64,000 bases of DNA from Escherichia coli (GTDB lineage: Bacteria; Pseudomonadota; Gammaproteobacteria; Enterobacterales; Enterobacteriaceae): assembly GCF_001677475.2 (NCBI RefSeq), contig NZ_CP015229.1. One strand, 5' to 3'. A model generated the notes under the pieces. The model saw nothing but the letters and a program-made list of their open reading frames with translations. It had not been told where the DNA came from and searched no databases. A program made the position numbers and the translations under genes. Below, piece after piece: positions 17,107 to 63,778 of this stretch (the stretch's first letter is position 1; every line of letters starts with the position of its first letter).

Positions 17107-17128
17107 AGAAGATAGTCGAATCAGTAAA

Positions 17129-45028: not shown

Positions 45029-45044
45029 GTGGAATTTATTCCAC
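45029..45044. promoter_or_regulatory. candidate operator: inverted repeat GTGGAAT-TT-ATTCCAC, with an extra GTGGAAT half-site at 44954..44960
   Basis: Perfect 7-2-7 inverted repeat in the divergent epd / PPC-ECF operon spacer; no binding factor identified. Confidence 0.3.
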
Positions 45045-45172
45045 TTTGCAGAATCACGAATAAGCGTAGCAAAATCTTTTCGTTGTGCCGTCACAAACCC
45101 TGACTTATATCAGAATATGACTGATGCAGCGTCGATATTATCCGCAATACGTCCGAGTTTCGGAGTACTCCA

Positions 45173-45604
45173 ATGATGACATTGCCCTACCCATATTCTT
45201 CCTCCGCACGCTTTTACTCGCTGCGCCTGCTCCCCGGGCAGGAAGTTCTCTCCCAATTGCGCGCCTTCACGCAGCAACAACAACTCCACGCCGCGTGGAT
45301 TGCAGGTTGTACCGGCAGTCTGACTGACGTCGCCTTACGCTATGCCGGACAAGAAAACACGGCCCTACTAAGCGGTAAGTTCGAAGTCATCGCATTGAAC
45401 GGCACGCTGGAACAGAGTGGTGAACATCTTCATCTCTGCGTTTCCGATCCACACGGCACGATGCTTGGCGGTCATATGATGCCCGGCTGTACCGTGCGGA
45501 CCACGCTTGAACTGGTGATCGGCTGCCTTGAGGAACTGGCGTTTAGCCGCCAGTCTTGCGCGCTTTCTGGTTACGACGAGTTGCATATTTCCCCCGTTAA
45601 ATAA
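45173..45604 (+). CDS. PPC/DUF296-like domain protein, 143 aa (first gene of the island operon)
   Basis: ORF 45173..45604; GGAG 9 nt upstream; domain assigned from memory of the family (AAWIxGCxGSL, HLHLCVSDPHG, GGH..PGCTV). Confidence 0.7.
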   Translation: MMTLPYPYSSSARFYSLRLLPGQEVLSQLRAFTQQQQLHAAWIAGCTGSLTDVALRYAGQENTALLSGKFEVIALNGTLEQSGEHLHLCVSDPHGTMLGGHMMPGCTVRTTLELVIGCLEELAFSRQSCALSGYDELHISPVK

Positions 45605-45626
45605 CTACTTTCAGAGAGGTTTTCTT

Positions 45627-46205
45627 ATGGCGCGTCGCCACTTTTCCAGTCAGGCGTTGGTGTTGATCGTTATATCTATCGCCATCAATATGATCGGCGG
45701 GCAACTGGCCAGCATGGTCAAATTACCTATATTTCTCGACTCCATCGGCACACTTATTAGCGCGGTACTGCTTGGTCCGGTGATCGGGATGCTGACCGGC
45801 TTACTGACCAATTTACTCTGGGGATTGCTAACCGACCCGATCGCCGCCGCATTTGCGCCCGTCGCGATGGTCATCGGCCTGGTCGCCGGTTGGCTGGCGC
45901 GAGCGGGTTGGTTCCGCACCCTGCCAAAAGTTGTTGTCAGCGGCGTGATTATTACGCTTGTGGTAACGGTCGTCGCTGTACCGCTGCGTACTGCGCTGTT
46001 CGGCGGTGTCACCGGTAGCGGAGCCGATTTGTTCGTTGCCTGGATGCACTCAATGGGGCAAAACCTGGTGGAGTCGGTGGCGATTACGGTGATAGGCGCG
46101 AACCTGGTCGATAAAGTTCTCACAGCGGTGATTGTCTGGCTTTTACTGCGTCAGCTGCCGATTCGCACCACGCGCCATTTTCCGGCAATGGCAGCCGTGC
46201 GCTAA
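45627..46205 (+). CDS. ECF-transporter substrate-specific (S) component-like membrane protein, 192 aa
   Basis: 3' part of ORF 45528..46205; start at MARRHFSSQ (ATG 45627) with GAGAGG upstream; about 6 hydrophobic helices. Confidence 0.65.
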   Translation: MARRHFSSQALVLIVISIAINMIGGQLASMVKLPIFLDSIGTLISAVLLGPVIGMLTGLLTNLLWGLLTDPIAAAFAPVAMVIGLVAGWLARAGWFRTLPKVVVSGVIITLVVTVVAVPLRTALFGGVTGSGADLFVAWMHSMGQNLVESVAITVIGANLVDKVLTAVIVWLLLRQLPIRTTRHFPAMAAVR

Positions 46206-46913
46206 ATGCATCCGTTTACCTCATTAACGCTGTGGGCGCTGGCAGCCTGCACCACGCTAATCCTGCCCGCGCAGACCATTTTGCCGGTCTATAGCGCGGC
46301 GACCTTTCTCTGCCTTATTGCGTTAAAGTCCACGCGGCGGCGAGCAAAATATGTCGTCTGGCTGATGTTCTCGCTGGGGGCTGGACTGTGGCTGGTACAC
46401 GGTGGCTGGCTGACAGAATGGCTAAGCGGCACGCCACGCTCGCCAGAACGGTGGGCGCATGCTATTACGCTCTGGTTGCGGATTCTGGCGATTGTTTCAA
46501 CCTCGCAGTTGTGGATGCAATTCGTCCCCGTGCAACGTTTTATCCGCGCTTTGTTTGCTTCTCGCCTGCCGCCAGGCGTCGCTTATCTGTTTGCCGGGCC
46601 GTTATTGGTCGTTGAGCAGTTAAAACGGCAATTAGCGATTATTCATGAAGCGCAGCGTGCCCGCGGCGTGCCTCTGGATGAGGGCTGGTATCAACGTTTA
46701 CATGCGATGCCCGCGTTAATTATTCCGCTAACACACAATGCGCTAAACGATCTTGCTGTCCGTGGTGCGGCGCTGGATATGCGGGCATTTCGGATCCACA
46801 GCCGACGAACAACGTTGTGGGCACCAGCCGATAGCCCCCTACAACGCGTAGCGCGTTACACCATGATCTTGCTGATGCTGGCAGAATTCGGAGCGTGGAT
46901 ATGGTTACGTTAG
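46206..46913 (+). CDS. ECF-transporter transmembrane (T) component, CbiQ/EcfT family, 235 aa
   Basis: ORF 46206..46913; start abuts the previous stop (TAAATG); C-terminal coupling-helix motifs QRARG and AVRGAA. Confidence 0.75.
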   Translation: MHPFTSLTLWALAACTTLILPAQTILPVYSAATFLCLIALKSTRRRAKYVVWLMFSLGAGLWLVHGGWLTEWLSGTPRSPERWAHAITLWLRILAIVSTSQLWMQFVPVQRFIRALFASRLPPGVAYLFAGPLLVVEQLKRQLAIIHEAQRARGVPLDEGWYQRLHAMPALIIPLTHNALNDLAVRGAALDMRAFRIHSRRTTLWAPADSPLQRVARYTMILLMLAEFGAWIWLR

Positions 46914-47578
46914 AACAGTTTCGCTATTGCCCGACAAACTCAACGCATCCTCCGTTCTGTTATGACTTTCACTATGTCAAACCGGGGATAGTCGCCATCT
47001 TTGGTGACAACGGCAGTGGCAAAAGTACGCTGGCGCAACTGATGGCGGGCTGGTATCCAGACTTTCTACCAGGAGAGATAACCGGCACGGGGACACTTCT
47101 CGGTACGCCCATTGGGCATCTCCCGCTTAATGAACAATCCGCCACCATCCAGCTCGTCCAGCAATCGCCCTATTTGCAGCTCTCCGGCTGTACCTTTAGC
47201 GTGGAAGAAGAAGTTGCCTTTGGGCCAGAAAATCTGTGTCTTGCTGAAAAAGAGATTATGGCGAGGATTGATGCCGCCCTGACTCTGAGCGAGTGCCAGC
47301 CGTTGCGCCATCGACACCCGGCAACACTCTCCGGTGGAGAGACACAGCGCGTGGTCATCGCCTGCGCTATCGCGATGCAGCCAAAACTATTAATTCTTGA
47401 TGAAGCCTTTAGCCGCCTGACGCCGCAGGCCAGCGAAATGCTGTTGCAGCGCTTACAACACTGGGCGTTTGAACGTGGTTCGCTGATTATTCTTTTTGAA
47501 CGTCATCGCACACCTTTCCTGAACTACTGCCAGCAAGCGTGGCAACTGCAAAACGGAGCGCTCCAGCCACTATGTTAA
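46895..47578 (+). CDS. ABC ATPase (EcfA-like), 227 aa
   Basis: ORF 46895..47578; Walker A GDNGSGKST, signature LSGGETQR, Walker B LLILDEA; overlaps the T gene by 19 nt. Confidence 0.85.
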   Translation: MDMVTLEQFRYCPTNSTHPPFCYDFHYVKPGIVAIFGDNGSGKSTLAQLMAGWYPDFLPGEITGTGTLLGTPIGHLPLNEQSATIQLVQQSPYLQLSGCTFSVEEEVAFGPENLCLAEKEIMARIDAALTLSECQPLRHRHPATLSGGETQRVVIACAIAMQPKLLILDEAFSRLTPQASEMLLQRLQHWAFERGSLIILFERHRTPFLNYCQQAWQLQNGALQPLC

Positions 47579-48249
47579 CGTTAAATCAGGTAACTTATCG
47601 CTGGCCTGGCGCGGCAACGGATTGTCTTTGCGACATTTCTCTGCAACTCAAACAAGGCGAATGGCTGGCGCTGACCGGCGACAATGGCGCAGGGAAATCG
47701 ACGCTGTTACGAGTAATGGCAGGTCTTCTTACGCCCACAGCCGGTACAGTTATGCTGCAACAACAGACGATGAAAAACCTGAAAAACCGCCAGCGCGCGG
47801 CAAAGATTGGCGTACTGTTTCAGGAAGCGGAAAACCAGCTTTTTCACAGCACCGTCGCTGACGAGATCGCATTTGGTTTGAAACTGCAAAAATGCCCGGC
47901 GGATGAAATCACTCAACGTACCCATGCTGCCCTGCAATGCTGTCAGTTAGCAGACACTGCCAGCGCGCACCCGTTGGATCTGCATAGTGCGCAGCGACGG
48001 ATGGTCGCCGTCGCCTGCCTGGAAGCACTCTCTCCGCCACTATTGCTGCTGGACGAGCCGAGTCGGGATTTTGACGAAAATTGGTTGAGCGTGTTTGAAA
48101 GCTGGCTGGAGAAGTGCCGCCAGCGAGGCTCGAGCGTCGTAGCAATCAGTCATGACGCCGCATTTACCCGGCGTCATTTCTCTCGTGTGGTGCGACTGGA
48201 AGATGGTGTAATCAGGAACGTTAATCCACCAGACGATATTCACCCGTAG
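47572..48249 (+). CDS. ABC ATPase (EcfA'-like) with a degenerate signature motif, 225 aa
   Basis: 3' part of ORF 47539..48249; start at MLTLNQVTY (ATG 47572, ATGTTAA overlap with the upstream stop); Walker A GDNGAGKST, Walker B LLLLDEP, H-loop ISHD; signature position reads LHSAQR. Confidence 0.8.
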   Translation: MLTLNQVTYRWPGAATDCLCDISLQLKQGEWLALTGDNGAGKSTLLRVMAGLLTPTAGTVMLQQQTMKNLKNRQRAAKIGVLFQEAENQLFHSTVADEIAFGLKLQKCPADEITQRTHAALQCCQLADTASAHPLDLHSAQRRMVAVACLEALSPPLLLLDEPSRDFDENWLSVFESWLEKCRQRGSSVVAISHDAAFTRRHFSRVVRLEDGVIRNVNPPDDIHP

Positions 48250-48934
48250 CGGTCATCATTAAAGTCAAATTTGCAGGCAGACTCTCTTCCAGCACCCGGC
48301 GAACATTCGGCCCGTCGGTACGGTCATAAAAAGCTTCTGCGTCTGCCAGTGATAACCCTCCCGCCAGCTTGCGCCCCACCAGTCGTTCCCGCAACGCAGT
48401 AGCTGGCGCATTGATAAAGATCGAGAAATCACAAAATTGCGCAAGCTGGCACCACTTCTCGTCGTCCAGCAACAACCAGTTTCCTTCGACGATGACGAGT
48501 GGTGCGGTAACGTGCAACGCATCTTCAACAGGATCATGCTTTTGTCGATCATACTGCGGCCACGCACAATCCCCTTCCACTACCTGGCGCAGGTTTTCCG
48601 CCAGTTTCGCTACATCGAATGTCTCTGGTGCGCCTTTGAAGGGGCGCAATTGATGCGCATCCAGCCAGCTATTGTAATGGTGAAAACCATCCATCGGGAG
48701 TGTCTGAATAGCGGGTAGTTCCGGGTCTTGTTGCGCGAGATATTCCCAGAAGGTGGTTAGGGTAGATTTACCCGTCCCCGGCGGAGCGCAAAGAAAAACC
48801 ACCGTACGCCGCTGCGGATTTACCGTCTGTAAGGCCGCCAGCATACGCAGTAGCGTTTTATGAACATTCTCAATTTCATCATCAGAGTACTGCGCCTGTA
48901 CCTTTAGTCCATTCACCGTCAGTTCGATTTTCAC
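48221..48934 (-). CDS. yggC: P-loop nucleoside/pantothenate kinase-like protein YggC, 237 aa
   Basis: ORF 48221..48934; P-loop GTGKST; 3' end overlaps the convergent EcfA' gene by 29 nt. Confidence 0.85.
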   Translation of the reverse strand: MKIELTVNGLKVQAQYSDDEIENVHKTLLRMLAALQTVNPQRRTVVFLCAPPGTGKSTLTTFWEYLAQQDPELPAIQTLPMDGFHHYNSWLDAHQLRPFKGAPETFDVAKLAENLRQVVEGDCAWPQYDRQKHDPVEDALHVTAPLVIVEGNWLLLDDEKWCQLAQFCDFSIFINAPATALRERLVGRKLAGGLSLADAEAFYDRTDGPNVRRVLEESLPANLTLMMTATGEYRLVD

Positions 48935-49440
48935 GGCGTTAATTCCTTTAAGGTTGTCGTTACTGCCAGCGTCAGCGCCGTTTTGACCATCCCGCTAAAA
49001 CGCGCCTCTGACCAGACGGCGAAATCGGCGAACTTCATCGCTTTCAACGCGTCATAGAGCGTCGCATTGCGGATTATGCTATTGACGTTGCTGATAAAAT
49101 CCCAGGTCATGTCATCGGCAAATCCGGGCATTTCATCCTGTTCGTTCAGGTAATGCCAGAACTGGGAAAAATGCGTGATATCGGCGTACAGCCATTTATC
49201 CATTTTCCCCAGCGCATAAATCAAACGCAGTGCAACATCAATATCGTCAAGCGGGCCGCTTTGGGCGAGTAACGGCTTCACTGCATATTCGACGATCTCT
49301 TCATCATTATCGACAAACAGCGACGGCAGAAACTGGCGTATCCCCTGGAGCAAAATAGAATGCGCAGTTTTCATAAATGAAAATAAATTGTCCTGTGCCT
49401 CCAGTTGCTCAAGCACATCATCTTCTGTCAGCGTCGCCAT
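48931..49440 (-). CDS. yggD: MtlR-like putative transcriptional regulator YggD, 169 aa
   Basis: ORF 48931..49440; 4-nt overlap with yggC. Confidence 0.85.
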   Translation of the reverse strand: MATLTEDDVLEQLEAQDNLFSFMKTAHSILLQGIRQFLPSLFVDNDEEIVEYAVKPLLAQSGPLDDIDVALRLIYALGKMDKWLYADITHFSQFWHYLNEQDEMPGFADDMTWDFISNVNSIIRNATLYDALKAMKFADFAVWSEARFSGMVKTALTLAVTTTLKELTP

Positions 49441-49461
49441 TGGTCTTCCGATAGATCACCA

Positions 49462-50427
49462 TCAATGCAGGGAGTCTATTATATTACACGTTTGGTCCGC
49501 GCCGCCGATCAGTAATGTCTGCGTCCGCACCCCATTCGCCGTCTGTTGGATTCCGTTCACCAACTCGCCGCCCGTCACGCCCGTAGCGCTAAAGAGGATA
49601 TCGTTCCCCCTCACCAGTTCATCGAGCGAGTACACACGGTTAACGTCAACGCCCATTTCCTTGCAACGCTTGCGCTCCTGCTCTGCAATCTGCCGATTTT
49701 CCGTGTAATCCCCTTTAGCCTGACAAAAGTCAATCAGCTCGGCCTGCATATCCCCGCCTAATGCTTTAACGGCACAGGCAGAAATCACGCCTTCTGGCGC
49801 ACCGCCGATGGTGTACATCACATCGTAAGGATTATCCTGCCAGCAGGTCAGCACGCTGGCGGCGACATCGCCATCCGGCAGGGCAAAAACCTTCACGCCC
49901 AGCTGTGTTGCTTCCTCAATTGCGGCACTCAGGCGCGGTTTATCCAGCGTAACCATACGCAGCTTGTCCAGCGGTTTGCCTAACGCTTTCGCCACGTTGC
50001 GCAAGTTGTCCGCCAGAGGCATGGACAGATCAATCGCGCCCGCCGCCAGCCGATTAACAACCAGTTTTTTCATATACATATCGGGCGCGTGTAACAGGCT
50101 ATCTCGAGGGGCGAAAGCCATGACCGCCAGCGCATTGCTCTGCCCCATCGCCACCATCCGCGTGCCTTCAATGGGATCGACCGCGATATCGACTTCTGGC
50201 CCATCGCCTTTGCCCACCTCTTCGCCAATCCACAGCATCGGCGCATGGTCAATTTCTCCCTCGCCGATAACCACTCGCCCACGAAAAGCGACGTCGTTCA
50301 ACGCCTGGCGCATCGCGGTGACCGCCAGGCCGTCGATTTTGTTTTTATCGCCACATCCGGTTTGCGGCCAGGCAGCCAACGCTGCCTGTTCCGTAACGCG
50401 AAATAATGGCCACGCCAGGGACATCAT
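49462..50427 (-). CDS. yggF: class II (GlpX-type) fructose-1,6-bisphosphatase YggF, 321 aa
   Basis: ORF 49462..50427. Confidence 0.85.
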   Translation of the reverse strand: MMSLAWPLFRVTEQAALAAWPQTGCGDKNKIDGLAVTAMRQALNDVAFRGRVVIGEGEIDHAPMLWIGEEVGKGDGPEVDIAVDPIEGTRMVAMGQSNALAVMAFAPRDSLLHAPDMYMKKLVVNRLAAGAIDLSMPLADNLRNVAKALGKPLDKLRMVTLDKPRLSAAIEEATQLGVKVFALPDGDVAASVLTCWQDNPYDVMYTIGGAPEGVISACAVKALGGDMQAELIDFCQAKGDYTENRQIAEQERKRCKEMGVDVNRVYSLDELVRGNDILFSATGVTGGELVNGIQQTANGVRTQTLLIGGADQTCNIIDSLH

Positions 50428-51701
50428 TGCGTGGTCTCCCCAATATCAACGCCAAATTGTGCCAGCAGATATTTCTCGGCCTGTTCATTCCAGATGCCGT
50501 GCGTTTCCTCAACCAACCGCGCCAGCTCTTTAAACAGCGGATCGGTTTTGCCTTTTTCGGCAAAATCGGCAATGGCAGTGAGCGGCATGGTCACGCCGTT
50601 ATAAATGAGTTTTTTACCGCCAGGGATATCCGGCAGATTGAGCACGGTTTCTGGCACCGCATCCAGGCCACCAATATGGGTCACCATAAACGACGGCTGT
50701 AACTGTCCTGTGGCGCTAAGGGCAATCGCCTCTTTCATGTCGTCCGTTGAACCGCCAGATGTACCGACGACGTGCGTGCTGTTGTAATGGACGTTGTAGA
50801 AATTAAACGGCACTTTGAAGTTTTTATCCGTCGGACCGGCAAAGAAGTTCAGACAGCCATCTTCCGCCAGTAATTCGTCAGCCATCTCAACGACAGCAGG
50901 CACCGCCGCATAAACAAAAATGTCATCGAACCCGGCATCTCCTGTAAGCGCCCGCAGCATCTGGACTGGATCGCTCATCCCTTTGGTATTCACATACACC
51001 AGCTCAATGCCTTTACTAGCCGCCAGTTCCACCGGCAGCAGCTTCTGTACCTGCGCCAGGCGTTTGTCGTCGATATCGACCACCACCACCCGCGACGGTT
51101 GTATGCCACCGTTAATGGCGTAATCGATAGCGCCAATGCCCATTGGACCAGCACAGGCCAGCAGTGCAATATTGCCGCCAGGTTTGACGCCCATGCGATG
51201 CTCATAAACATATTGCGTGGTGTGATAATTGGCATGATAAGCGCCAATAATGCAGCACATAGGCTCTGCCAGCGACGCAGCAGCAAAATAAGAGCCGTGA
51301 TACGGTAATACGCAGCCCAAATTAATGGCTACCTCTGGAATAATCATATAGGTGGCGTTACCGCCAAAATATTCGTAGCTGTAGCCCGCTGAATATCCGC
51401 TTGGTAACCCCATTGCCGGTTGCAATACAAAACGCTGGCCTTTTTTATATTTGCCGGTGAGATTTTTACCCACTTCAACAATAACCCCGGCACATTCATG
51501 TCCGGTAATGACCGGATGATTTTCTAAATCGTCGGATACGCGTTTATGTTCACTACCGAGTAACGCCGCTTTCCAGGTGGATAAACAGACGCTGTCAGAA
51601 ATTACACTCACTAACAGTTCATTATCGGTAATTTCTGGCAGTTCAAATTCGCGCAGACGGACATCCCGCTTGCCATAAATAGCAGCAACTTTGGTTTTCA
51701 T
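50424..51701 (-). CDS. yggP: Zn-dependent polyol/sugar-phosphate dehydrogenase (MDR family) YggP, 425 aa
   Basis: ORF 50424..51701; 4-nt overlap with yggF. Confidence 0.85.
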   Translation of the reverse strand: MKTKVAAIYGKRDVRLREFELPEITDNELLVSVISDSVCLSTWKAALLGSEHKRVSDDLENHPVITGHECAGVIVEVGKNLTGKYKKGQRFVLQPAMGLPSGYSAGYSYEYFGGNATYMIIPEVAINLGCVLPYHGSYFAAASLAEPMCCIIGAYHANYHTTQYVYEHRMGVKPGGNIALLACAGPMGIGAIDYAINGGIQPSRVVVVDIDDKRLAQVQKLLPVELAASKGIELVYVNTKGMSDPVQMLRALTGDAGFDDIFVYAAVPAVVEMADELLAEDGCLNFFAGPTDKNFKVPFNFYNVHYNSTHVVGTSGGSTDDMKEAIALSATGQLQPSFMVTHIGGLDAVPETVLNLPDIPGGKKLIYNGVTMPLTAIADFAEKGKTDPLFKELARLVEETHGIWNEQAEKYLLAQFGVDIGETTQ

Positions 51702-51715
51702 TTTTACCTCTGTAA

Positions 51716-53104
51716 TCAGTGTTTATGTTCGGCGGTTAATTGATTAAATAAAGTGTCGAGTTTTGGATCGCCAATATAGTTACTAATCAATATCAGTGGT
51801 TTATCCGTCACACGTTTCACGCGCCCTTCCAGACTGGCATGAGTAACGACGATATCCGCATCCGCAGGCACGTTTTCTATCGCGTAATGTTTTACTTCAA
51901 TTGCCAGCCCCGCTTTTTCCAGGCGTTTACGGAAGGTGGTCGCGCCCATCGCACTGGAGCCCATCCCCGCATCGCAAACAAAGGCGATACGCTTAACCTT
52001 GCTTAACGAGAATGCACCTTCTTGTTTCATCGCCTTAACCGCATTGGCTGACTGAGCAAACTCATATTCGCTCTCCGTTTCCACCGTTTTTTCCATCTTC
52101 AGTATCAGCGAAGTGATAGCAAAGGACACCAGGGTACCTACCGTAACACCGGCAATTGTCGCCAGGAATGAGCCTTTCGGCGTCAGCGCCAGGTAAGCAA
52201 AGATAGACCCCGGACTTGGGCCAGCCACCAGACCACCGTCCAGTAAGTTAAACATCCAGGTGCCAGACATACCGCCCGCAATCATGGCAATAATGGTCAG
52301 CGGCTTCATCAGCACATATGGGAAATACAGTTCGTGGATCCCACCGAGGAAGTGAATAATCATCGCCCCGGGCGCAGAACGTTTACTCATCCCTTTACCA
52401 AACAAGGTAAACGCCAGCAGCAGCCCCAGGCCCGGACCTGGGTTAGAGGCCACCATAAAGAAGATGGATTTACCGTTAACCGAAGCCTGTTGCATTCCCA
52501 GCGGATAATAGACGCCCTGATCGATCGCGTTATTGAGGAAAAGCACTTTCGCCGGTTCATTGATGACTGACAGCAGAGGCAGATAACCCGCATGTACCAG
52601 CGCCTCAATACACTCTTTGACGAAAGTATTGGCAATTAACACCGCCGGGCCGATCACTTCAAAACCCAGCAGACAAAGGAGCATCCCCGCGATACCTAAT
52701 GAGAAGTTATTGATAACCATCTCAAAACCGGCAGGTATGCGTTTTTCCAGTGCCTTATCGACATATTTTATGACCAGACCACCGAGCGGCCCCATAATCA
52801 TCGAACCAAGGAACATCGGGATCTCTGCGCCGACGATCACACCAATAGTACCTATTCCGCCCATGACCGCCCCGCGTTTACCGCCGACCAGATGACCACC
52901 GGTAGAACCAATCATCACGGGCAATAAATAGGTAATCATCGGGCCGACAATTTTGGCGAAATGTTCATTCGGCAGCCAACCGGTGGGAATAAATAACGCA
53001 GTTATAAAACCCCAGGCAATAAAAGCACCGATATTGGGAATGACCATTGCAGTCAAAAAGCCCCCAAAAGCCTGGACCCTTGCACGAGCAGACTTGTTTT
53101 CCAT
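51716..53104 (-). CDS. cmtA: PTS mannitol-family EIICB component (cryptic), 462 aa
   Basis: ORF 51716..53104; polytopic N-terminal domain plus C-terminal EIIB with conserved Cys (AFVCDAGMGSS). Confidence 0.9.
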   Translation of the reverse strand: MENKSARARVQAFGGFLTAMVIPNIGAFIAWGFITALFIPTGWLPNEHFAKIVGPMITYLLPVMIGSTGGHLVGGKRGAVMGGIGTIGVIVGAEIPMFLGSMIMGPLGGLVIKYVDKALEKRIPAGFEMVINNFSLGIAGMLLCLLGFEVIGPAVLIANTFVKECIEALVHAGYLPLLSVINEPAKVLFLNNAIDQGVYYPLGMQQASVNGKSIFFMVASNPGPGLGLLLAFTLFGKGMSKRSAPGAMIIHFLGGIHELYFPYVLMKPLTIIAMIAGGMSGTWMFNLLDGGLVAGPSPGSIFAYLALTPKGSFLATIAGVTVGTLVSFAITSLILKMEKTVETESEYEFAQSANAVKAMKQEGAFSLSKVKRIAFVCDAGMGSSAMGATTFRKRLEKAGLAIEVKHYAIENVPADADIVVTHASLEGRVKRVTDKPLILISNYIGDPKLDTLFNQLTAEHKH

Positions 53105-53131
53105 AATATTATCCTGTAGAGGAGAGAGTCA

Positions 53132-53575
53132 TTATCCGCGGCTGATTATGTCCGCTAATTGTTTTTCTGATGATGCTGTTAAGAGTTGTTCGAGTATTTC
53201 TTCTTCGCTCAGTAATTCACTTAACGCCTGAATAGCGCCAATGTGCGAATCGGCATCGGCAGCAGAAAGCCCGATGAGTAATTTAATCGGTTCGTCATTC
53301 CCCGGGAAATAAACGCCTTGTTTAAGTAACGTTAAAGACATCCCGGTTTTAAGCGCCCCACATTCCGGTCGAGCATGAGGCATTGCCACGCCTGGTGCGA
53401 GAATATAATAAGGACCATTGCTGATGGTGGAGTCTTTAATAGACTGAATGTAATTCTCGCTGATATAGTTTTTATCCAGCAATGATGCCATCGAGAAATC
53501 GATAGCTTCCTGCCAATCTTTTGCTGAATGTATAACTGAGATTGATGATTCTGGAAAATAATCAATAAGCCGCAT
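53132..53575 (-). CDS. cmtB: PTS mannitol-family EIIA component (cryptic), 147 aa
   Basis: ORF 53132..53575; EIIA-Mtl active-site His region (VAMPHAR). Confidence 0.9.
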   Translation of the reverse strand: MRLIDYFPESSISVIHSAKDWQEAIDFSMASLLDKNYISENYIQSIKDSTISNGPYYILAPGVAMPHARPECGALKTGMSLTLLKQGVYFPGNDEPIKLLIGLSAADADSHIGAIQALSELLSEEEILEQLLTASSEKQLADIISRG

Positions 53576-53951
53576 AAATTATCCTTATTTTATTTTTAGG
53601 GTACCGTCCGGCGGTAAAAATAAAATACTCGTGCGGTTTAATGAAAGCAATTGGGTACGCGAGAAGAAAAACCCCATGAACAAAAATAATAAAACTTTAA
53701 ATAACAACAACATGAAATTGATATTTTTAAAGTCAACTTTGTATTTGTTATGTTTATCACAAAATCAACATTTTGATTGTTGTTGTATTTGTGATGCATA
53801 TCGCCATTTATTTATTGAATGTCCGAAAACATACTTTTTTAATGCAATGTTTTTTCGCTATACCCCTTTATAGATTCTGAATTCTCACCTGTCGGCTATT
53901 TTCTCCTCACCTCATGTGACATATTCCCCACTTTACTCAAGGAAGATTCAT

Positions 53952-54860
53952 ATGAAAGCACCTGTTTCATTAACCTCATTTCGCCCACAAAAATCTATTG
54001 CTATCGCCATTGGCGTGCTTGCCGTGGTTGTGCTGCCATTTCTCTCGTATTACACCGTTAATGAAGGTGAACGCGGCATTTTGCTGCGCTACGGAAAAAT
54101 CGTAAAAGTTGCCGAGCCGGGTCTGGGTTTTAAGATCCCTTTTATGGAAAGCGTGGAGAAAATTTCCACGCGTAATCAGGCTGTGGTTTATCAGGGATTA
54201 CAGGCCTACAGCCGCGACCAGCAACCGGCACAAATGACAGTATCAGTCAGCTTCCACATTAAACCTTCAGAAGCTGGCGCAGTTTATACAACCTACAACA
54301 CCATTGAATCTTTAAAAGAGCGTCTGATCGTCCGCCAGCTGCCAACCCAACTGGAGAACGTTTTCGGGCAATATACAGCCATCAGCGCGGTACAGGATCG
54401 TACAAAACTGGTTCAGGATCTGCAAAATGCCATGCGTAAAGCCGTTGTTGGCCCGGTGGTGATTGATGGTGTTCAGATTGAAAATATTGATTTTTCTGAC
54501 GCTTATGAAAAATCGATTGAAGATCGAATGAAAGCAGAAGTCGCCATTGCCACACGTAAGCAAAATCTGGAAACAGAGAAAATCCAGGCGCAAATAGCGG
54601 TAACTCAGGCCCAGGCAGAGGCAGACAGTAAACTGGCGGCAGCCAAAGCAGAAGCGGAAACTATTCGCGTAAGAGGCGCGGCAGAGGCTTAAACTATTCG
54701 TTTAAAAAGTGCGGCTGAAGCAGAAGCGATCCGCCTGCGCGGTGAAGCTCTGCGGGATAATCCCGGACTTGTTGCCCTCACCACTGCTGAGCGTTGGGAC
54801 GGTAAGCTACCCGATACCATGATCCCCGGCAGTACAGTTCCGTTTATCTCTACTAAGTAA
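53952..54860 (+). pseudogene. SPFH/band-7 (prohibitin-like) membrane protein gene interrupted by an in-frame TAA at 54690..54692
   Basis: ORF 53916..54692 (start probably ATG 53952 with AAGGAAG upstream); N-terminal TM helix, SPFH-like core, AEA-rich tail; the same frame continues 54693..54860 (55 codons); the stop sits where the upstream repeat copy has GAA. Confidence 0.65.
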
Positions 54861-54885
54861 AAAAAGGGCCGATTTCGCGGCCCTT
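54859..54885 (-). terminator. tktA intrinsic terminator
   Basis: Stem GGGCCG/CGGCCC (54866-54883) followed on the minus strand by a 7-nt T-run (plus-strand A-run 54859-54865). Confidence 0.7.
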
Positions 54886-54905
54886 CTCACAAAGCATCTT
54901 ACCGA

Positions 54906-56897
54906 TTACAGCAGCGCTTTGGCTTTCGCAACAACGTTGTCAACGGTGAAGCCGAACTCTTCAAACAGCAGTTCTGCCGGAGCAGATTCACCGAAGGTGG
55001 TCATGCCGACGATAGCACCGTTCAGGCCAACATACTTGTACCAGTAGTCAGCAATGCCAGCTTCCACCGCAACGCGTGCAGTAACCGCTTTCGGCAGTAC
55101 GGATTCACGGTAAGCCGCATCCTGCTTGTCGAATGCGTCGGTAGACGGCATGGAAACCACGCGCGCTTTCACGCCTTCGGCAGTCAGTTTTTCGTAGGCA
55201 GCAACCGCCAGTTCAACTTCAGAACCGGTAGCGATGAAGATCAGTTCCGGCTGACCGGCACAGTCTTTCAGCACATAACCACCGCGCGCGATGTTTGCCA
55301 GCTGCTCTTCAGTACGTTCCTGCTGCGCCAGGTTCTGACGGGAGAGGATAAGCGCAGTCGGGCCGTCCTGACGCTCAACGCCGTATTTCCACGCGACCGC
55401 GGATTCAACCTGGTCACACGGACGCCATGTGGACATGTTCGGGGTCACGCGCAGAGAAGCGACCTGCTCTACCGGCTGGTGAGTCGGGCCATCTTCGCCC
55501 AGACCGATGGAGTCGTGGGTGTAAACCATCACCTGACGCTGTTTCATCAGCGCAGCCATACGTACGGCGTTACGTGCGTATTCCACGAACATCAGGAAGG
55601 TGGAGGTGTACGGCAGGAAGCCACCGTGCAGGGAGATACCGTTAGCAATCGCGGTCATACCGAACTCGCGAACACCGTAGTGGATGTAGTTACCCGCAGC
55701 ATCTTCGTTGATTGCTTTAGAACCAGACCACAGGGTCAGGTTAGACGGTGCCAGGTCAGCAGAGCCGCCGAGGAATTCCGGCAACAGCGGACCGAACGCT
55801 TCAATCGCATTCTGAGACGCTTTACGGCTGGCGATTTTCGCCGGATTAGCCTGCAGTTTAGCGATGAATTCTTTCGCTTTGGCGTCGAAGTCAGACGGCA
55901 TTTCGCCTTTCATACGGCGGGTAAATTCAGCGGCTTCCTGCGGATAAGCTTTCGCGTAAGCCGCGAATTTCTCGTTCCATGCGGATTCTTTCGCCTGGCC
56001 TGCTTCTTTCGCATCCCACTGAGCATAGATTTCAGACGGGATTTCGAACGGTGCATATTTCCAGCCCAGCTGTTCGCGGGTCAGGGCGATTTCAGCGTCG
56101 CCCAGCGGCGCACCGTGGGAGTCGTGCGTACCGGCTTTGTTCGGGGAACCGAAACCGATGATGGTTTTGCACATCAGCAGGGACGGTTTGTCAGTCACTG
56201 CGCGCGCTTCTTCTACTGCGCGTTTGATGGATGCCGCGTCATGACCGTCGATGCCGCGAATAACGTGCCAGCCGTAAGCTTCGAAACGCATTGCGGTGTC
56301 GTCGGTGAACCAGCCTTCAACGTGGCCATCGATAGAGATACCGTTGTCATCGTAGAACGCAATCAGTTTACCCAGCTTCAGCGTACCCGCCAGAGAGCAA
56401 ACTTCGTGGGAGATACCTTCCATCATGCAGCCGTCGCCCATGAAGGCGTAGGTGTAGTGGTCGACGATGTCGTGGCCCGGACGGTTAAACTGCGCCGCCA
56501 GCGTTTTTTCTGCAATCGCCATACCGACTGCGTTGGCAATACCCTGACCCAGCGGACCAGTAGTGGTTTCCACACCAGCGGTGTAACCCACTTCCGGGTG
56601 ACCCGGAGTTTTAGAGTGCAGCTGACGGAAGTTTTTCAGTTCTTCCATCGGCAGATCGTAACCGGTGAGGTGCAGCAGGCTGTAGATCAGCATGGAGCCG
56701 TGGCCGTTGGACAGCACGAAGCGGTCACGGTCAGCCCAGGACGGATTCTGCGGGTTGTGTTTCAGGAAATCACGCCACAGGACTTCGGCAATGTCAGCCA
56801 TACCCATAGGGGCACCCGGGTGACCGGATTTGGCTTTCTGTACTGCGTCCATGCTCAGCGCACGAATAGCATTGGCAAGCTCTTTACGTGAGGACAT
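54906..56897 (-). CDS. tktA: transketolase 1, 663 aa
   Basis: ORF 54906..56927; start at [12 protein letters not shown] (ATG 56897..56895); TPP-binding motifs. Confidence 0.95.
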
Positions 56898-57174
56898 TTT
56901 GACTCCAGATCGGATGATGAAGGGCACGCCCTTAACGACTTGACGACAGCGCGTTTTGGGCTACGCCAGAAAATTTGCCAACAATTTACCGCAAGCCGCG
57001 CGTCATGTACATGGAACATCCTTTTGCCGCTTCAGAAATCTCTGGATCATGCTCGCATGTTGCGCAATCTGCTCGCCCGTCCGCTGCGCTTTTCCTTATA
57101 CTGAGACTGAGCGTCGATTCACCTGCAAACGGCGCATTTTTAGAATAATCCTGACCTTGTGCGGAAGAGAAAAC

Positions 57175-57933
57175 ATGAAAATTCGCGCCTTATTGGTAGC
57201 AATGAGCGTGGCAACGGTACTGACCGGTTGCCAGAATATGGACTCCAACGGACTGCTCTCATCAGGAGCGGAAGCTTTTCAGGCTTACAGTTTGAGTGAT
57301 GCGCAGGTGAAAACCCTGAGCGATCAGGCATGTCAGGAGATGGACAGCAAGGCGACGATTGCGCCAGCCAATAGCGAATACGCTAAACGTCTGACAACTA
57401 TTGCCAATGCGCTAGGCAACAATATCAACGGTCAGCCGGTGAATTACAAAGTGTATATGGCGAAGGATGTGAACGCCTTTGCAATGGCTAACGGCTGTAT
57501 CCGCGTCTATAGCGGGCTGATGGATATGATGACGGATAACGAAGTCGAAGCGGTGATCGGTCACGAGATGGGGCACGTGGCGTTAGGCCATGTGAAAAAA
57601 GGGATGCAGGTGGCGCTTGGTACAAATGCCGTGCGAGTAGCTGCGGCCTCTGCGGGCGGGATTGTCGGCAGTTTATCGCAATCACAACTTGGTGATCTGG
57701 GCGAGAAATTAGTCAATTCGCAATTCTCCCAGCGCCAGGAAGCAGAAGCCGATGATTACTCTTATGATCTTCTGCGCCAACGCGGCATCAGCCCGGCAGG
57801 TCTTGCCACCAGCTTTGAAAAACTGGCGAAACTGGAAGAAGGCCGCCAAAGCTCAATGTTTGACGACCACCCAGCATCCGCCGAACGCGCCCAGCATATT
57901 CGCGATCGTATGAGCGCGGATGGGGTTAAGTGA
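57175..57933 (+). CDS. loiP: outer-membrane M48-family metalloprotease LoiP, 252 aa
   Basis: 3' part of ORF 56956..57933; start at MKIRALLVAM (ATG 57175); lipobox LTGC; HEMGH zinc motif. Confidence 0.9.
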   Translation: MKIRALLVAMSVATVLTGCQNMDSNGLLSSGAEAFQAYSLSDAQVKTLSDQACQEMDSKATIAPANSEYAKRLTTIANALGNNINGQPVNYKVYMAKDVNAFAMANGCIRVYSGLMDMMTDNEVEAVIGHEMGHVALGHVKKGMQVALGTNAVRVAAASAGGIVGSLSQSQLGDLGEKLVNSQFSQRQEAEADDYSYDLLRQRGISPAGLATSFEKLAKLEEGRQSSMFDDHPASAERAQHIRDRMSADGVK

Positions 57934-57940
57934 TTTCATA

Positions 57941-57972
57941 TTTCTCCGACAGGAATGTCGGAGAAATTTTCA
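57941..57972 (+). terminator. loiP intrinsic terminator
   Basis: TTTCTCCGACA-GGAAT-GTCGGAGAAA followed by TTTTCATTC. Confidence 0.75.
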
Positions 57973-58018
57973 TTCAGGATCGGTCACAGTCATTAAACAA
58001 GCTCAATCATTGGGGGCA

Positions 58019-59581
58019 TCAATTCGCTTCGTAGATTGCTTTATCCGGTGTATCCGATTGCACCTCTACTACATCGGCAGTGCTTACGCCACAAGCCCAG
58101 GCAAAAGCCGTCTCTGTTCCTTCAGGTAATGGAGTATCCCAGGGTAAAGTACGCCACGGACTCCCCTGCTCTTTTAATAAAGATGTAATGGCTTTCTTAA
58201 AAAGAATATGGGTAATCAGGTGCCGTTTATCCGTTGCTTTCCAGTACCAACGGGCCAGCAAAAAATGTCCGGCCAATTCGCGCCAGCTTCTGTAATGTTG
58301 CTGTACGCGTCTGGCTGCCAGCATCGAAAAATCGACCATTTCACGCTGGGTAATGTATCCCACTTGCGCCCCGCTATTACATAGCATGACAAAGCGCACC
58401 ATATCCCAGGCACAAAAATCTATGTCGCATATTTTACGTCGATTTTTTCTGACCATCTGTAGCTGCCACAAACGCTCTTTCGCTTCGCTACTTAATTTCG
58501 CGTTCTGAGCTAATTGCTGAGCGAACGCGCTATATTCAGCATCCGGCATTTCGCTATCGTTTTTGATCTGTTCTTCATAAACTGAACGATGCCCTGCTAC
58601 AAACAAAGCTAAGAGTTGCTCAAGTAACGAATCCCGATCAAAGACGCCCCACATGTCAGCAAGGGACTCAACTTCACTTTTGCAATCATTCTCTGCTTCC
58701 ACGGAATCATCATTAACGACTCGTCGCGCCCAGTGATTGTTACCCGCAATGGCATAAGGCGCGCCGACTGCCATTGCCCAACGTTCGGCAGCAGGAATTT
58801 TTTGAATTGAGGGATCTTTACAGGATGCTTTGAAAAGGCGATGTCCGGCGAACACCAGGCCATAACCAATCCACAAAACAGCCACCAAGGCGAGAATAAG
58901 TATTATCGCTACCAGATAAAGGGCATATTTGCCTATTGTCAGTAAGACATCCAGCCAGGAAGAGTCTGGCTCCGTAACTGTTTGCTCCACCGATGTCAAA
59001 GGGGACTTACTGACCCGCTCTGGCGCGGTCCTCGTCAACAGAGGGAAATCCCTATGTTGCTTGAATGAGCGTTTTTTAAGCAAATCTATTTTTTTCTGCA
59101 CCTCATCAGTAACCCGACCGTTTTTTTCAAACTCATGTAACGATGCAAAATCAATCGCCGCAATCTTCCATTTACCATCCCCTTCACGGATTAATTCCAT
59201 TGGAATATCAATATAAGATTGGTGACCAAAAAAAGCACCAATCTGCGCCTTGTCGCCTTCGACGAAGGTCGCTAAAGGATCGCTATAACTGGGGAAACGT
59301 CGTTTACACGTTTTGGGTGACTCTTGCCAGTATTTCAGTACAGGCTCCATTAAAGCAGGCGTAAATACTTGCTGCATTTCCACAAGGCGATCGTGCGAAT
59401 CTGTGCTGGTGACAAACTCAGGGCCACATAATGCGCGATAACTCTTTTTGACGACAGAGGAAATAGCTTCTTTGTCTTGTTGCAGCTGTGCGGCAATTTT
59501 CTGTTTTTCTGCTCTATCGCAGCCAGTTGATAAAAGAAATAACAAACAAAGAAGAGGCTTCCAGGGAAGAGTGCGTTCCAT
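58019..59581 (-). CDS. hypothetical membrane protein, 520 aa: N-terminal signal/lipobox-like segment, one internal TM helix, large C-terminal domain (possibly DUF1266-like)
   Basis: ORF 58019..59581; N-terminus MERTLPWKPLLCLLFLLSTGC; internal hydrophobic segment YALYLVAIILILALVAVLWIGYGLVFAG; domain assignment is from memory and tentative. Confidence 0.7.
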   Translation of the reverse strand: MERTLPWKPLLCLLFLLSTGCDRAEKQKIAAQLQQDKEAISSVVKKSYRALCGPEFVTSTDSHDRLVEMQQVFTPALMEPVLKYWQESPKTCKRRFPSYSDPLATFVEGDKAQIGAFFGHQSYIDIPMELIREGDGKWKIAAIDFASLHEFEKNGRVTDEVQKKIDLLKKRSFKQHRDFPLLTRTAPERVSKSPLTSVEQTVTEPDSSWLDVLLTIGKYALYLVAIILILALVAVLWIGYGLVFAGHRLFKASCKDPSIQKIPAAERWAMAVGAPYAIAGNNHWARRVVNDDSVEAENDCKSEVESLADMWGVFDRDSLLEQLLALFVAGHRSVYEEQIKNDSEMPDAEYSAFAQQLAQNAKLSSEAKERLWQLQMVRKNRRKICDIDFCAWDMVRFVMLCNSGAQVGYITQREMVDFSMLAARRVQQHYRSWRELAGHFLLARWYWKATDKRHLITHILFKKAITSLLKEQGSPWRTLPWDTPLPEGTETAFAWACGVSTADVVEVQSDTPDKAIYEAN

Positions 59582-59664
59582 CTATTTATTCCATTAAAAA
59601 CACGGTAATAACAATCCATTAAAAAACAGCAGTCAGGGTAAAGATGACTTAATTAACAGGATAG

Positions 59665-59701
59665 GTTTTAAATGATAAGTCCCTTGTGCCAGACAAGGGA
59701 C
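59665..59701 (-). terminator. hairpin downstream of speB
   Basis: Perfect 8-bp stem GTCCCTTG/CAAGGGAC followed on the minus strand by a T-rich tract. Confidence 0.5.
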
Positions 59702-59730
59702 TGTGCAAAAAATTCGACCAGGCAGGTTAC

Positions 59731-60651
59731 TTACTCGCCCTTTTTCGCCGCCTGAATATACAGCATCTCCAGCGCCAGCGTTGCCGCTGCCAGAGCAGTG
59801 ATTTCCGACTGATCGTATGCCGGAGCCACTTCCACTACGTCCATCCCAACGATGTTGAGATCTTTCAGGCCGCGTACCAGTTTAATGGCGCGATCGGAGG
59901 TCAGGCCGCCAATTACCGGCGTACCGGTGCCTGGTGCAAAAGCAGGATCCAGGCAGTCGATATCAAAGGTCAGGTAAACCGGCATATCACCCACAATCTG
60001 TTTCACCTGGGCGATAACATCATCCACGCTGCGATCGTTCACCTGGCAGGCGTCCAGCACGGTAAAGCCGTTGTCTTTATCAAACTCGGTACGAATACCA
60101 ATCTGCACGGAATGATTCGGGTCAATCAGACCTTCTTTTGGCGCGGTATAGAACATCGTGCCGTGGTCAAATTCACAACCGTTCGCATAGGTATCGGTGT
60201 GAGCGTCAAAGTGTACCAGCGCCATTTTGCCGAAATGTTTTGCATGGGCGCGCAGCAGCGGCAGCGTAACAAAGTGGTCACCACCGAAGGAGAGCATACG
60301 CTTACCGGCAGCCAGCAGTTTCTCTGCGTGCGCCTGCAATTTCTCGCTCATCTCACGGGCATCGCCGAAGGCATATACCAGATCGCCGCAGTCCACGACG
60401 TTCAGGCGCTCGCGCATGTCGAAATTCCACGGGAAACGGTTGTGTTCCCAGGCCAGGTTAGTTGATACCTGACGGATAGCCGCCGGACCGTGACGACCAC
60501 CCGCACGACCAGAAGTGGCCATATCGAACGGTACGCCGGTAATCACCCAGTCAGCATCGCTGTCATACGGCTGGAAGTTCATCGGCAGGCGTAAAAAACC
60601 AAAGGCGTTGGAAACCAGTGAGTTATCGTATTGATGCCCTAAGGTGCTCAT
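59731..60651 (-). CDS. speB: agmatinase (agmatine ureohydrolase), 306 aa
   Basis: ORF 59731..60651; arginase-fold metal-binding motifs ([14 protein letters not shown]). Confidence 0.95.
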
Positions 60652-60678
60652 GGATGGACTCCTATTACAAAGTCGATA

Positions 60679-60721
60679 TAAAAAAACCCTTCCGCGTCGT
60701 TAGGCCCGACGAGGAAGGGTT
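60679..60721 (-). terminator. strong intrinsic terminator after the lipoprotein gene, about 30 nt upstream of the speB start codon
   Basis: Long stem AACCCTTCC...GGAAGGGTT with an inner CGTCG/CGACG pairing, followed on the minus strand by a 7-nt T-run. Confidence 0.7.
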
Positions 60722-60786
60722 GGATTTGCGAAACACAAGTTTGTGCTAATTATCGCCTTAAATGGGCGAGGCATCAAGCGAGGTTG

Positions 60787-61518
60787 CTATTTCCGACACG
60801 GTGGCGGCGCATAGCCATTGTTATCTGCTGGAAAAGCTTGTCCAGAGCACGGTGGCAGCGCGTTTTGCGCCGGGCCTTGTAATTCAAAGGCGGCAAAGCC
60901 GATTACCCCGGTATTACGCACATCGCCTTGCGCCGAATTGGCGGCGTAGGAATCAGCAACGTTGGCGAACTGAAAAGCCGCTTCGGTATGTTTATCTTTG
61001 CGGAATCCTTTAATCGCTAACGAATCTCCGGCATTCACAATATAACCGTTGTTATTCAGCGAACCTTGCTTGCCGTTCAGCACATCCAGGCCATCAACCG
61101 TAGCAACGATCTCGTAATTGGTGTTCCGGCTGTAGTTACGGACATATAATTGATAATTCATCCCCACTCTGGCATGAACAATATATCGCGGTTCATTATT
61201 TGATGAATCATAAACTCGCGTAATAGGTAGAGAATTAAAATTCGCATCACGAATAGCATATTCCAGTTCGTTAATACGAATGCTATAAACACGGTCGTAG
61301 CCGGAAGGAATATTTGTCGAATAATTAATAACGATCATCTCTGCCGGATCGCGCCAGGCGCGTTCAGCAGATACGCCCTGAACCGTTGAGTGCACATCTC
61401 CACCCCAGGCAGTGCCGACATTGCCCGATGCACTGCTATTATACTGCGCATTACTTGAGCAACCAGCCAACAACACGACTAATGCCACCAACGCGCTACG
61501 TACTTTCCATTTTTTCAT
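60787..61518 (-). CDS. hypothetical lipoprotein, 243 aa
   Basis: ORF 60787..61518; signal peptide with classic lipobox (VVLLAG-C, Cys20); N/S/Y-rich mature part; no domain recognised. Confidence 0.7.
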   Translation of the reverse strand: MKKWKVRSALVALVVLLAGCSSNAQYNSSASGNVGTAWGGDVHSTVQGVSAERAWRDPAEMIVINYSTNIPSGYDRVYSIRINELEYAIRDANFNSLPITRVYDSSNNEPRYIVHARVGMNYQLYVRNYSRNTNYEIVATVDGLDVLNGKQGSLNNNGYIVNAGDSLAIKGFRKDKHTEAAFQFANVADSYAANSAQGDVRNTGVIGFAAFELQGPAQNALPPCSGQAFPADNNGYAPPPCRK

Positions 61519-61600
61519 TACCGTTCCCTCTATTTAATTAATACAGCGATTGTAGGGGGGTTATTTAATAATAAAAGCAGCCAAATTATTTTTAAGAATA

Positions 61601-61644
61601 TATAAAAAGAAAGCGGGCCGATTTACGTAAATAAATCGACCCGC
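61601..61644 (-). terminator. speA intrinsic terminator
   Basis: GCGGGCCGATTTA ... TAAATCGACCCGC, 13-bp stem with one mismatch, followed on the minus strand by TTTCTTTTTATA. Confidence 0.7.
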
Positions 61645-61661
61645 CAGCGGAATAATCTTAA

Positions 61662-63638
61662 TTATTCATCTTCAAGATAGGTATATCCGTACAACCCTGC
61701 CTCGAACTCTTCAAGGAACTGTTGTTGCAATTCAGCATCAAGATCGGTTTTCTTCACTTGATCACGGAACTGAGTTAACAGCGTTTTCGGATCGAGCTGT
61801 ACATATTGCAGCATGTCCGCCACGGTATCGCCTTCGTCAGACAGTTCTACTTCTACGCTACCGTCAGGGAAGACGAACACGTCAACCGCTTCGGTATCAC
61901 CGAACAGGTTGTGCATATTGCCGAGGATCTCCTGATATGCGCCGACCATAAAGAAACCGAGCATCGGCGGATTCTCCGGATCGTACTCCGGCATTGGCAT
62001 TGTCGTGGCAATACCGTCACCATCAATATAGTGGTCGATAGCACCGTCAGAGTCACAGGTAATATCCAGCAACACAGCGCGGCGTTCCGGCACTTGATCC
62101 AGCCCTTCCAGCGGCAGAACCGGGAACAACTGGTCGATCCCCCATGCGTCCGGCATCGACTGGAACAGCGAGAAGTTGACGTACATTTTGTCCGCCATAC
62201 GTTCCTGCAGCTCGTCGATAATCGGGCGATGCGCACGGTTTTGCGGATCCAGTTGCTTCTGCACTTCATGGCACATGCTCAGATAGAGTTGTTCTGCCCA
62301 TGCACGTTCTTGCAGATTGTAAGTGCCCGAAGAGTATCCGATATGAATATCGTGCAGATCCATCTGGCTGTCATGCAGCCACTCACGCAGAGAACGGCGA
62401 GTCCCCGGTTCGTGCATTTCCTGCCAGGTTTCCCACATGCTTTGCAGGGCGCGCGGTGCGTCTTCTGCAGGTGCGGTCGGCACCGTGTATTCGTTACGTT
62501 CCACGCCGATGATATTTGACACCAGCACGGTGTGATGCGCAGTCACCGCACGACCCGACTCGGTGATTACCGTCGGATGCGGCAGACCATTTTCTTCACA
62601 CGCATCACCAATCGCCCAGATGATGTTGTTAGCGTATTCATTGAGGCCGTAGTTCACCGAACAGTCGGACTGCGAACGGGTGCCTTCATAATCCACGCCC
62701 AGGCCGCCGCCGACGTCGAAGCACTGAATATTGACGCCCAGCTTGTGCAGTTCCACATAGAAACGCGCGGATTCACGAACGCCTGTCGCGATATCGCGAA
62801 TATTCGCCATCTGCGAACCGAGGTGGAAGTGCAGCAGTTGCAGACTGTCGAGACGCCCGGCTTCACGCAGCGTTTCAACCAGTTGCAGTACCTGAGTCGC
62901 AGCCAGGCCGAACTTCGATTTTTCCCCGCCGGAGGACTGCCATTTACCGGAGCCCTGCGAAGCCAGACGTGCACGCACGCCCAGACGAGGAACGACATTC
63001 AGACGTTCTGCTTCATCCAGCACAATGGCAATTTCTGACATCTTCTCAATGACCAGATAGACCTTGTGGCCCATCTTCTCGCCAATTAATGCCAGGCGGA
63101 TATATTCGCGGTCCTTATAACCGTTGCAAACGATGACGCTACGGGTCATGCCAGCATGTGCCAGCACCGCCATCAACTCCGCTTTGGAACCGGCTTCCAG
63201 GCCCAGCGGTTCGCCCGAATGAATCAGGGACTCAATCACGCGGCGGTGCTGGTTAACTTTGATCGGATAAACGAGGAAGTAATCGCCGTTATAGCCGTAG
63301 GATTCCCGCGCACGTTTGAACGCGGCGTTAATAGAACGCAAACGGTGCTGCAGGATCTGTGGGAAACAGAACAGTGCAGGCAGACGCTGGCCCTGTGCTT
63401 CACGAGTTTTCACTAACTGCGCGAGATCGACGCGAGCTTCCGGGACGTCCGGGTCCGGGCACACGCTAATGTGGCCCAGCTCGTTAACGTCATAGTAGTT
63501 ATTGCCCCACCAGGCAATATTGTAAGTACGCAGCATCTTGCTGGCTTCCTGGGAGCTCATTGCAACCTCCTGCATGGAGCGTAGTACACCGTGTTCGCCC
63601 GCTGACGAAGGCAAACCCATAGACATGTCGTCAGACAT
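61662..63638 (-). CDS. speA: biosynthetic arginine decarboxylase, 658 aa
   Basis: ORF 61662..63650; start at [12 protein letters not shown] (ATG 63638..63636) gives the K-12 length. Confidence 0.95.
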
Positions 63639-63646
63639 AGCGAACC

Positions 63647-63778
63647 TCAAATTATTTTATTAAGTGTAAAACAGTTAACGACTATCGCAGCCTGGAACTG
63701 CGATAACAACCCATAAGCACATGGATTTTCCAGCAGTGAATGCTGACGCTCCAACTGCGCAACCGGTTTCTTTTTCAT
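63647..63778 (-). CDS. yqgB: small protein YqgB, 43 aa ([43 protein letters not shown])
   Basis: Minus-strand ATG 63778..63776 to TGA 63649..63647, ending 8 nt before the speA start; matches my recollection of K-12 YqgB; too short for the ORF track. Confidence 0.65.

Follow-up and report, generated by a model that had tools for sequence, protein, structure and literature searches.

The gene for a prohibitin-like protein between cmtB and tktA, in a 64,000-nucleotide stretch of an E. coli chromosome (the window; contig NZ_CP015229.1), very probably carries a real nonsense mutation passed on by vertical descent, GAA to TAA at codon 247 (Glu247stop), in a dispensable accessory SPFH gene of one E. 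coli lineage. In its ancestral form, the gene specifies an SPFH protein of 302 aa that is anchored in the membrane. Among the assembled sequences sampled, the stop is found in several independent assemblies of this lineage and is absent from all other Escherichia. The locus is judged to be a lineage-fixed nonsense pseudogene or, at best, a gene for a crippled protein, two outcomes that sequence by itself would not separate. Either way, it represents ordinary gene decay, with no new mechanism.

The SPFH gene occupies positions 53952..54860 on the + strand as a single reading frame broken by the TAA at 54690..54692, and its orthologues are annotated in RefSeq as a 909-bp “prohibitin family protein.” Its ATG at 53952 is the start annotated in these orthologues; the list of open reading frames chose the GTG at 53916 instead. 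The gene is flanked by cmtB (53132..53575, - strand), which is divergent, and by tktA (54906.., - strand), which is convergent. The following features were located:

53940-53943, + strand: AGGA Shine-Dalgarno-like motif, read directly from the sequence
53952..54692, + strand: truncated coding sequence, 246 codons plus the premature TAA, with the start matched to RefSeq orthologues
54651..54749, + strand: three diverged tandem 33-nt (11-codon) units encoding part of an Ala/Glu-rich helix
54651-54683, + strand: repeat unit 1, EAETIRVRGAA
54684-54716, + strand: repeat unit 2, EA*TIRLKSAA, with the stop as its third codon
54717-54749, + strand: repeat unit 3, EAEAIRLRGEA
54690..54692, + strand: premature stop TAA, with T at 54690 in place of the G of GAA (Glu247)
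54693..54860, + strand: orphaned 3' tail by translation, 55 in-frame codons plus the ancestral TAA at 54858..54860
54864..54885, no strand assigned: GC-rich hairpin GGGCCG...CGGCCC between the convergent SPFH gene and tktA

Sequence and translation bear out the first-pass annotation, which had described an SPFH frame cut by the TAA at 54690..54692 and remaining open for 55 further codons up to the TAA at 54858..54860. The orphaned tail reads TIRLKS...VPFISTK (an example tail peptide is WDGKLPDTMIPGSTVPFISTK), and its 55 codons specify the same amino acids as the tails of intact orthologues. The GC-rich hairpin is positioned after the ancestral stop, not after the premature one. It folds as RNA with -14.8 kcal/mol (z -3.4), a stability equaled in none of 200 shuffles, and next to it is an A-run on the + strand, read as a T-run in the direction of tktA. 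The hairpin probably acts as a terminator common to the SPFH gene and tktA; its + strand was not flagged by a consensus terminator scan, and the consensus scans for terminators and promoters returned nothing useful for the SPFH gene.

The origin of the stop by a single G-to-T change, as proposed from the window alone, is upheld by comparison with intact alleles. A gap-free alignment was obtained with four E. coli orthologues (L001-L004); each carries G at the site (GAA, Glu247), and their proteins of 302 aa end in ...VPFISTK. G is likewise present, and the site read through, in E. whittamii, E. albertii, and two other Escherichia species representatives (L007-L009 and L014). Intact orthologues thus comprise 302 codons and the window product 246, the frame being closed, as in other nonsense pseudogenes, by a stop where the orthologues encode an amino acid. 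In 5426 complete RefSeq E. coli genomes, a 30-mer centered on position 54690 was found with T in none and with G in 1823, and the best matches over 110 nt around the site were all one mismatch away. The G in orthologues and these counts together identify the change, at the level of sequence, as a single transversion.

At least 24 contigs, spread over 27 index blocks, carry the exact 246-aa product. T was found at the position equivalent to 54690 in four compared loci, of which two are NCBI assemblies (L089, GCA_018683435.1; L090, GCA_037967675.1) and two are Logan assemblies (L088, SRR15047267, whose contig occurs in at least 20 samples; L091, ERR3309126). These place the stop reproducibly in four distinct contexts and two sub-lineages. 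Over 15-20 kb, L088, L089, and L091 match the window at 99.975-99.994% identity. For L090 the overall identity is 99.47%; most of its differences flank a 3.3-kb ECF-transporter island missing there, and it still has the TAA and an identical SPFH gene. The island itself (window about 45010-48289) consists of four genes of an ECF-type transporter, namely an S component, a T component, and two ABC ATPases, with a gene for a PPC-domain protein upstream; the set is present in the window, L088, and L089 and absent from L090, whose SNPs relative to the window concentrate at the island junctions. One of the carrier assemblies, JAGEXB01, derives from an stx2-prophage-bearing E. coli isolated in Germany in 2018 (PMC8951638).

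A sequencing error, which had been named as an alternative at the outset, is contradicted by these independent assemblies and runs. It would mean that one base was misread or misassembled and that the real genome has GAA, as the lack of T in all 5426 complete RefSeq E. coli genomes might suggest. The same stop nevertheless recurs on at least 24 contigs, in two NCBI assemblies and in Logan assemblies of unrelated runs; moreover, the site lies outside any homopolymer, and a substitution would be atypical for a systematic error. An error is therefore extremely improbable, and a genuine mutation shared by descent is retained as the explanation.

The closest intact allele is that of L087, a metagenome contig, with 99.15% identical DNA and GAA at the site. 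Its protein equals the read-through product of the window with E247 and is the only exact match for the repaired protein. Because L087 has GAA and all carriers, including the island-less L090, have TAA, the alleles sampled place the origin of the mutation between the separation from L087-like relatives and the diversification of the carriers. The SPFH genes of the carriers differ by one synonymous change (divergence of about 0.1%), and in five sequences with the TAA, the 741 nt upstream are free of secondary lesions. As the carriers are only about 0.1% divergent, this lack of lesions says nothing either way; similarly, no signal of selection on the truncated allele was found among the carriers, whose divergence is too low. 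The window (positions 1-20000 and 44000-64000 tested) is 97.2-97.8% identical to the best of the 5426 complete RefSeq E. coli genomes, which marks the carrier lineage as under-sampled, divergent, and E. coli-like. E. whittamii and other Escherichia species representatives are 90-95% identical to the window at the DNA level; E. whittamii comes closest among the GTDB species representatives, with about 92-95%, and none of them is the source of the window. Single genes have much closer matches than the window as a whole (tktA 99.5%, SPFH gene 99.1%), which, in terms of sequence similarity, hints at a recombination mosaic.

The protein belongs to the SPFH/Band 7 superfamily by profile match, with Pfam Band_7 (PF01145) on residues 35-210, covering model positions 2-176 of 176 (E 4e-30), a region that the truncated product retains. 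An AlphaFold2 model of the intact protein (pLDDT 82.7, from a 33-sequence alignment) comprises a TM helix at residues 12-31, an SPFH domain at 33-181, and a long helix at 183-269, the 87-residue CC1. These are followed by a short helix at 271-280, in the position of CC2, and by a tail at 281-302 that is disordered in the monomer; confidence in the monomer model is low beyond residue 270. The predicted helix 12-31 (IAIAIGVLAVVVLPFLSYY) would serve as an N-terminal membrane anchor, presumably with the positively charged N-terminus inside. Foldseek matched the model with probability 1.00 to HflC, PHB, erlin, stomatin, and QmcA (TM-scores 0.5-0.55), so that the alpha/beta fold of the SPFH domain and the long helix resemble solved cage subunits. 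The closest matches in both sequence and structure are thus cage formers, namely HflC/HflK, PHB1/2, erlin1/2, stomatin, and QmcA.

HflC and HflK, modulators of E. coli FtsH with the reference structures PDB 7VHP, 7WI3, and 9CZ1, are the best of these matches (HflC: sequence match E 4e-14, Foldseek 5e-17 to 7vhq_G). They share with the SPFH protein an N-terminal TM anchor, the SPFH domain, a long Ala/Glu-rich wall helix, and a C-terminal cap. The protein nevertheless falls far below their equivalog cut-offs (HflC 61 vs 134.4 bits, HflK 37.7 vs 159.4 bits); against the four NCBIfam models tested (TIGR01932, TIGR01933, NF008259, and NF008181), the pairs of score and cut-off were 61/134.4, 53.5/427, 37.7/159.4, and 36.4/660 bits. 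In addition, HflK and HflC form a hetero-oligomer, whereas the SPFH gene is single, with no paired paralogue adjoining. Unlike HflC and HflK it is accessory, not core, and in the window its cap region is cut off. It is consequently a relative of HflC and HflK and neither of them.

QmcA-YbbJ, an SPFH-NfeD complex (PDB 8Z5G), and stomatin represent homo-oligomer-type SPFH proteins of similar length. QmcA matches with E 5e-7 in sequence and 2.9e-12 in Foldseek, at a TM-score of 0.55 and about 22% identity, and a CC1 of 87 residues predicts about 26 subunits by a published regression (PMC12624060), which is the number in QmcA. In contrast to an SPFH-NfeD operon, no NfeD-type partner lies beside the SPFH gene, the neighbors being cmtB and tktA. 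The cages of prohibitin 1/2 and erlin 1/2 (PDB 8RRH, 9O9Z, and 9O9U) are built in the same order of TM, SPFH1/2, CC1, CC2, and CT, with a hydrophobic, Pro-containing C-terminal motif after the cap helix (TMIPGSTVPF here, IPNMF in erlins). Prohibitins and erlins differ in being eukaryotic organellar hetero-oligomers with 16-20% identity to the SPFH protein, and the resemblance of the two motifs is taken as an analogy, not as demonstrated homology.

In this architecture, codon 247 falls inside CC1. The predicted product of the window retains the membrane anchor and the SPFH domain; as the stop lies within the wall helix 183-269, CC1 is cut to 64 of its 87 residues, and its final 23 residues are lost together with the cap helix (CC2) and the C-terminal motif. 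CC1, CC2, and the C-terminal cap are complete in one frame in all orthologues and incomplete in the window. The gene of the window is therefore a member of the SPFH family with an incomplete product. A natural C-terminus at codon 246, one of two observations that the first-pass annotation had named as refuting its own reading, is ruled out: of 80 aligned relatives, ranging from Escherichia to Rhizobiales (Escherichia, Pseudocitrobacter, Yersinia, Shewanella, Pseudomonas, and Brucella/Rhizobium), all 79 with a complete 3' end read through the site into a strongly conserved tail, and none ends there. The tail motif, NPxLVxLTxAERWDGxLPxTMxPxxxVPF, counts among the best-conserved stretches of the protein, with invariant columns at N270, L273, L276, E280, W282, G284, L286, P287, T289, P292, and P297. 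By this alignment, no part outside the SPFH core is more conserved than the removed region.

In solved SPFH cages, the CC2 helices, the strand that follows them, and the C-terminal motif form the cap; assembly fails in erlin mutants affected in CC2 packing or in the C-terminal IPNMF motif, and CC2 mutations are the most damaging ones in PHB1/2 (PMC12624060). This assembly role of CC2 and the C-terminus comes from distant homologues with 16-24% identity and not from the SPFH protein itself. By analogy with erlins and prohibitins, the CC2 and C-terminal elements would hold a ring of about 24-26 subunits together. The 246-aa product would then be membrane-anchored and probably unable to form a closed cage, so that the gene would functionally be a pseudogene.

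Such a functional loss is in keeping with the absence of the gene from two thirds of E. coli and with its independent disruption in other strains. The SPFH gene is present in 1830 of the 5426 complete E. coli genomes, and several lesions unrelated to the TAA were identified in other lineages, making its loss here unsurprising. One allele carries Q84* (L096, GCA_900449945.1), two share a 1-bp deletion in a T-run (L092/L093), and two (L094 and L095) are reduced to a 142-aa remnant by different 5' deletions. The frameshift of the L092 type may partly reflect assembly error, given the further indels in L092. In L095, a metagenome scaffold, a gene for a class A beta-lactamase (Pfam Beta-lactamase2, positions 197-1072) adjoins the SPFH remnant in place of cmtB/cmtA, which suggests insertion of a resistance gene at this locus. 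With ordinary nonsense pseudogenes of E. coli accessory genes, the allele of the window shares a single-base in-frame stop followed by an intact downstream frame, fixation in one clade, variable gene presence, and independent breaks elsewhere. It differs solely in the coincidence that the stop fell into a repeat, where the ancestral codon can be read from the paralogous units.

Two other readings grant that the stop is real. The first holds that a stable 246-aa protein is retained and works differently, the allele being adaptive in a Shiga-toxin-associated lineage; the protein could, for example, form open, uncapped rings or arcs or act on HflK/C, QmcA, or YqiK complexes. The allele is indeed common to sub-lineages that differ in island content and all have an intact 5' part, the carrier assembly JAGEXB01 comes from an isolate with an stx2 phage, and open, non-closed HflK/C assemblies are reported in two studies (PMC12048511, PMC13220708). 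Yet the divergence of the carriers is too small to show purifying selection, the lost tail is the most conserved non-core segment across the 79 relatives, and the frequent absence or breakage of the gene in E. coli points to relaxed selection and not to adaptive tuning. This reading is consequently considered unlikely. Its most specific form, in which the 246-aa protein is made, is stable, and occurs in uncapped or open SPFH assemblies with altered properties that are kept by selection, is rated slightly lower still; if true, the 246-aa form would be a “cap-less” SPFH variant of natural origin, in an Escherichia lineage associated with Shiga toxin.

The second reading assumes that the stop is bypassed by programmed read-through, by a suppressor tRNA, or by re-initiation, for example at the ATT at 54696 after GAGG. 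A GAGG motif does precede the stop, and the downstream frame is still open and unchanged, as is expected of any young nonsense mutation. UAA is the most efficiently recognized stop codon in E. coli, and it is the one present here. The sole canonical in-frame start downstream is Met290, which would yield 13 residues, and a search at the stop, including Rfam, found no known signal for an RNA or recoding element. A bypass is thus very improbable, and loss of function by a nonsense mutation remains the preferred account.

The stop lies in a tandem repeat, whose description in the first-pass annotation requires two corrections. The identity of 24/32 and the alignment of the stop with GAA hold, whereas the repeat comprises three units rather than two, and the copy said to be the 32 nt before the stop was off by one. 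At the correct offset of 33 nt, 54657..54688 and 54690..54721 are 24/32 identical, with the TAA aligned to the GAA at 54657; shifting the alignment by one base leaves 7/32. The three 33-nt units are identical to one another at 24/33, 21/33, and 18/33 positions. The top in-frame 33-nt self-match in the gene reaches 25/33, a value attained in none of 200 codon shuffles (maximum 23, mean 19.1), and the repeat is thus above chance. Tandem Repeats Finder did not report the 33-nt repeat of this gene, as the copies are too diverged. Gene conversion from a neighboring unit was rejected as the source of the stop, since both other units have GAA at the aligned codon.

Alignment of relatives indicates that those outside Escherichia carry two units and that the extra unit is specific to Escherichia. 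Comparison of the window with loci L007-L086 identifies the stop-bearing 11-residue unit as the Escherichia-specific insertion in the CC1 wall helix, with two units in Pseudocitrobacter, Enterobacter, Mixta, Shewanella, and Pseudomonas. Yersinia and Brucella/Rhizobiales show independent 11-residue insertions elsewhere in the same helix. CC1 length predicts the number of subunits by the published regression, under which 87 versus 76 CC1 residues would predict about 26 versus about 24 subunits (PMC12624060). These observations suggest that cage size may be tuned in 11-residue steps of CC1. A smaller change was seen in E. albertii NBRC 107761 (L009), where an in-frame duplication of three residues at codons about 82-87 (YQGLQGLQAYS vs YQGLQAYS) results in a protein of 305 aa.

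For annotation, the locus in the carrier lineage should be labeled neither as an intact gene nor as an assembly error, but as a pseudogene with an internal stop or as a C-terminally truncated prohibitin-family protein. As a SNP, the T at 54690 could be used to mark this under-sampled clade. The allele is also a naturally occurring cap deletion that can be compared with the intact 302-aa form in studies of bacterial SPFH cage assembly. Beyond correct annotation and strain typing, its importance is small.

Several observations concern the surroundings of the gene. Comparison of 80 loci found no neighbor family conserved across genera, and the SPFH gene therefore appears to stand alone. In E. coli E1433, an IS1 element lies in the cmtB-SPFH intergenic region (L002, positions 534-1231), upstream of an intact SPFH gene, which adds to the signs that changes are frequent at this locus. 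The spacer between the SPFH gene and tkt contains one to three copies resembling window 41095-41211 in five other loci (L003, L004, L007, L008, and L014), and these inserted copies account for spacer length differences of 170-350 bp; the SPFH-tktA spacer of the window is free of any such copy. The REP-like ES036 (CssrF) has two Rfam copies in the window, at 41147-41189 and 16999-17041. Rfam also identified 6S RNA (ssrS) and a Sib antitoxin RNA at gathering score at window positions 26944-27127 and 27776-27926, both of which are expected features of this chromosomal region. Finally, a gene for a DUF1266-domain protein of 520 aa is located between loiP and speB (58019-59581, - strand) and has the same annotation in E. 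coli KK19-02.
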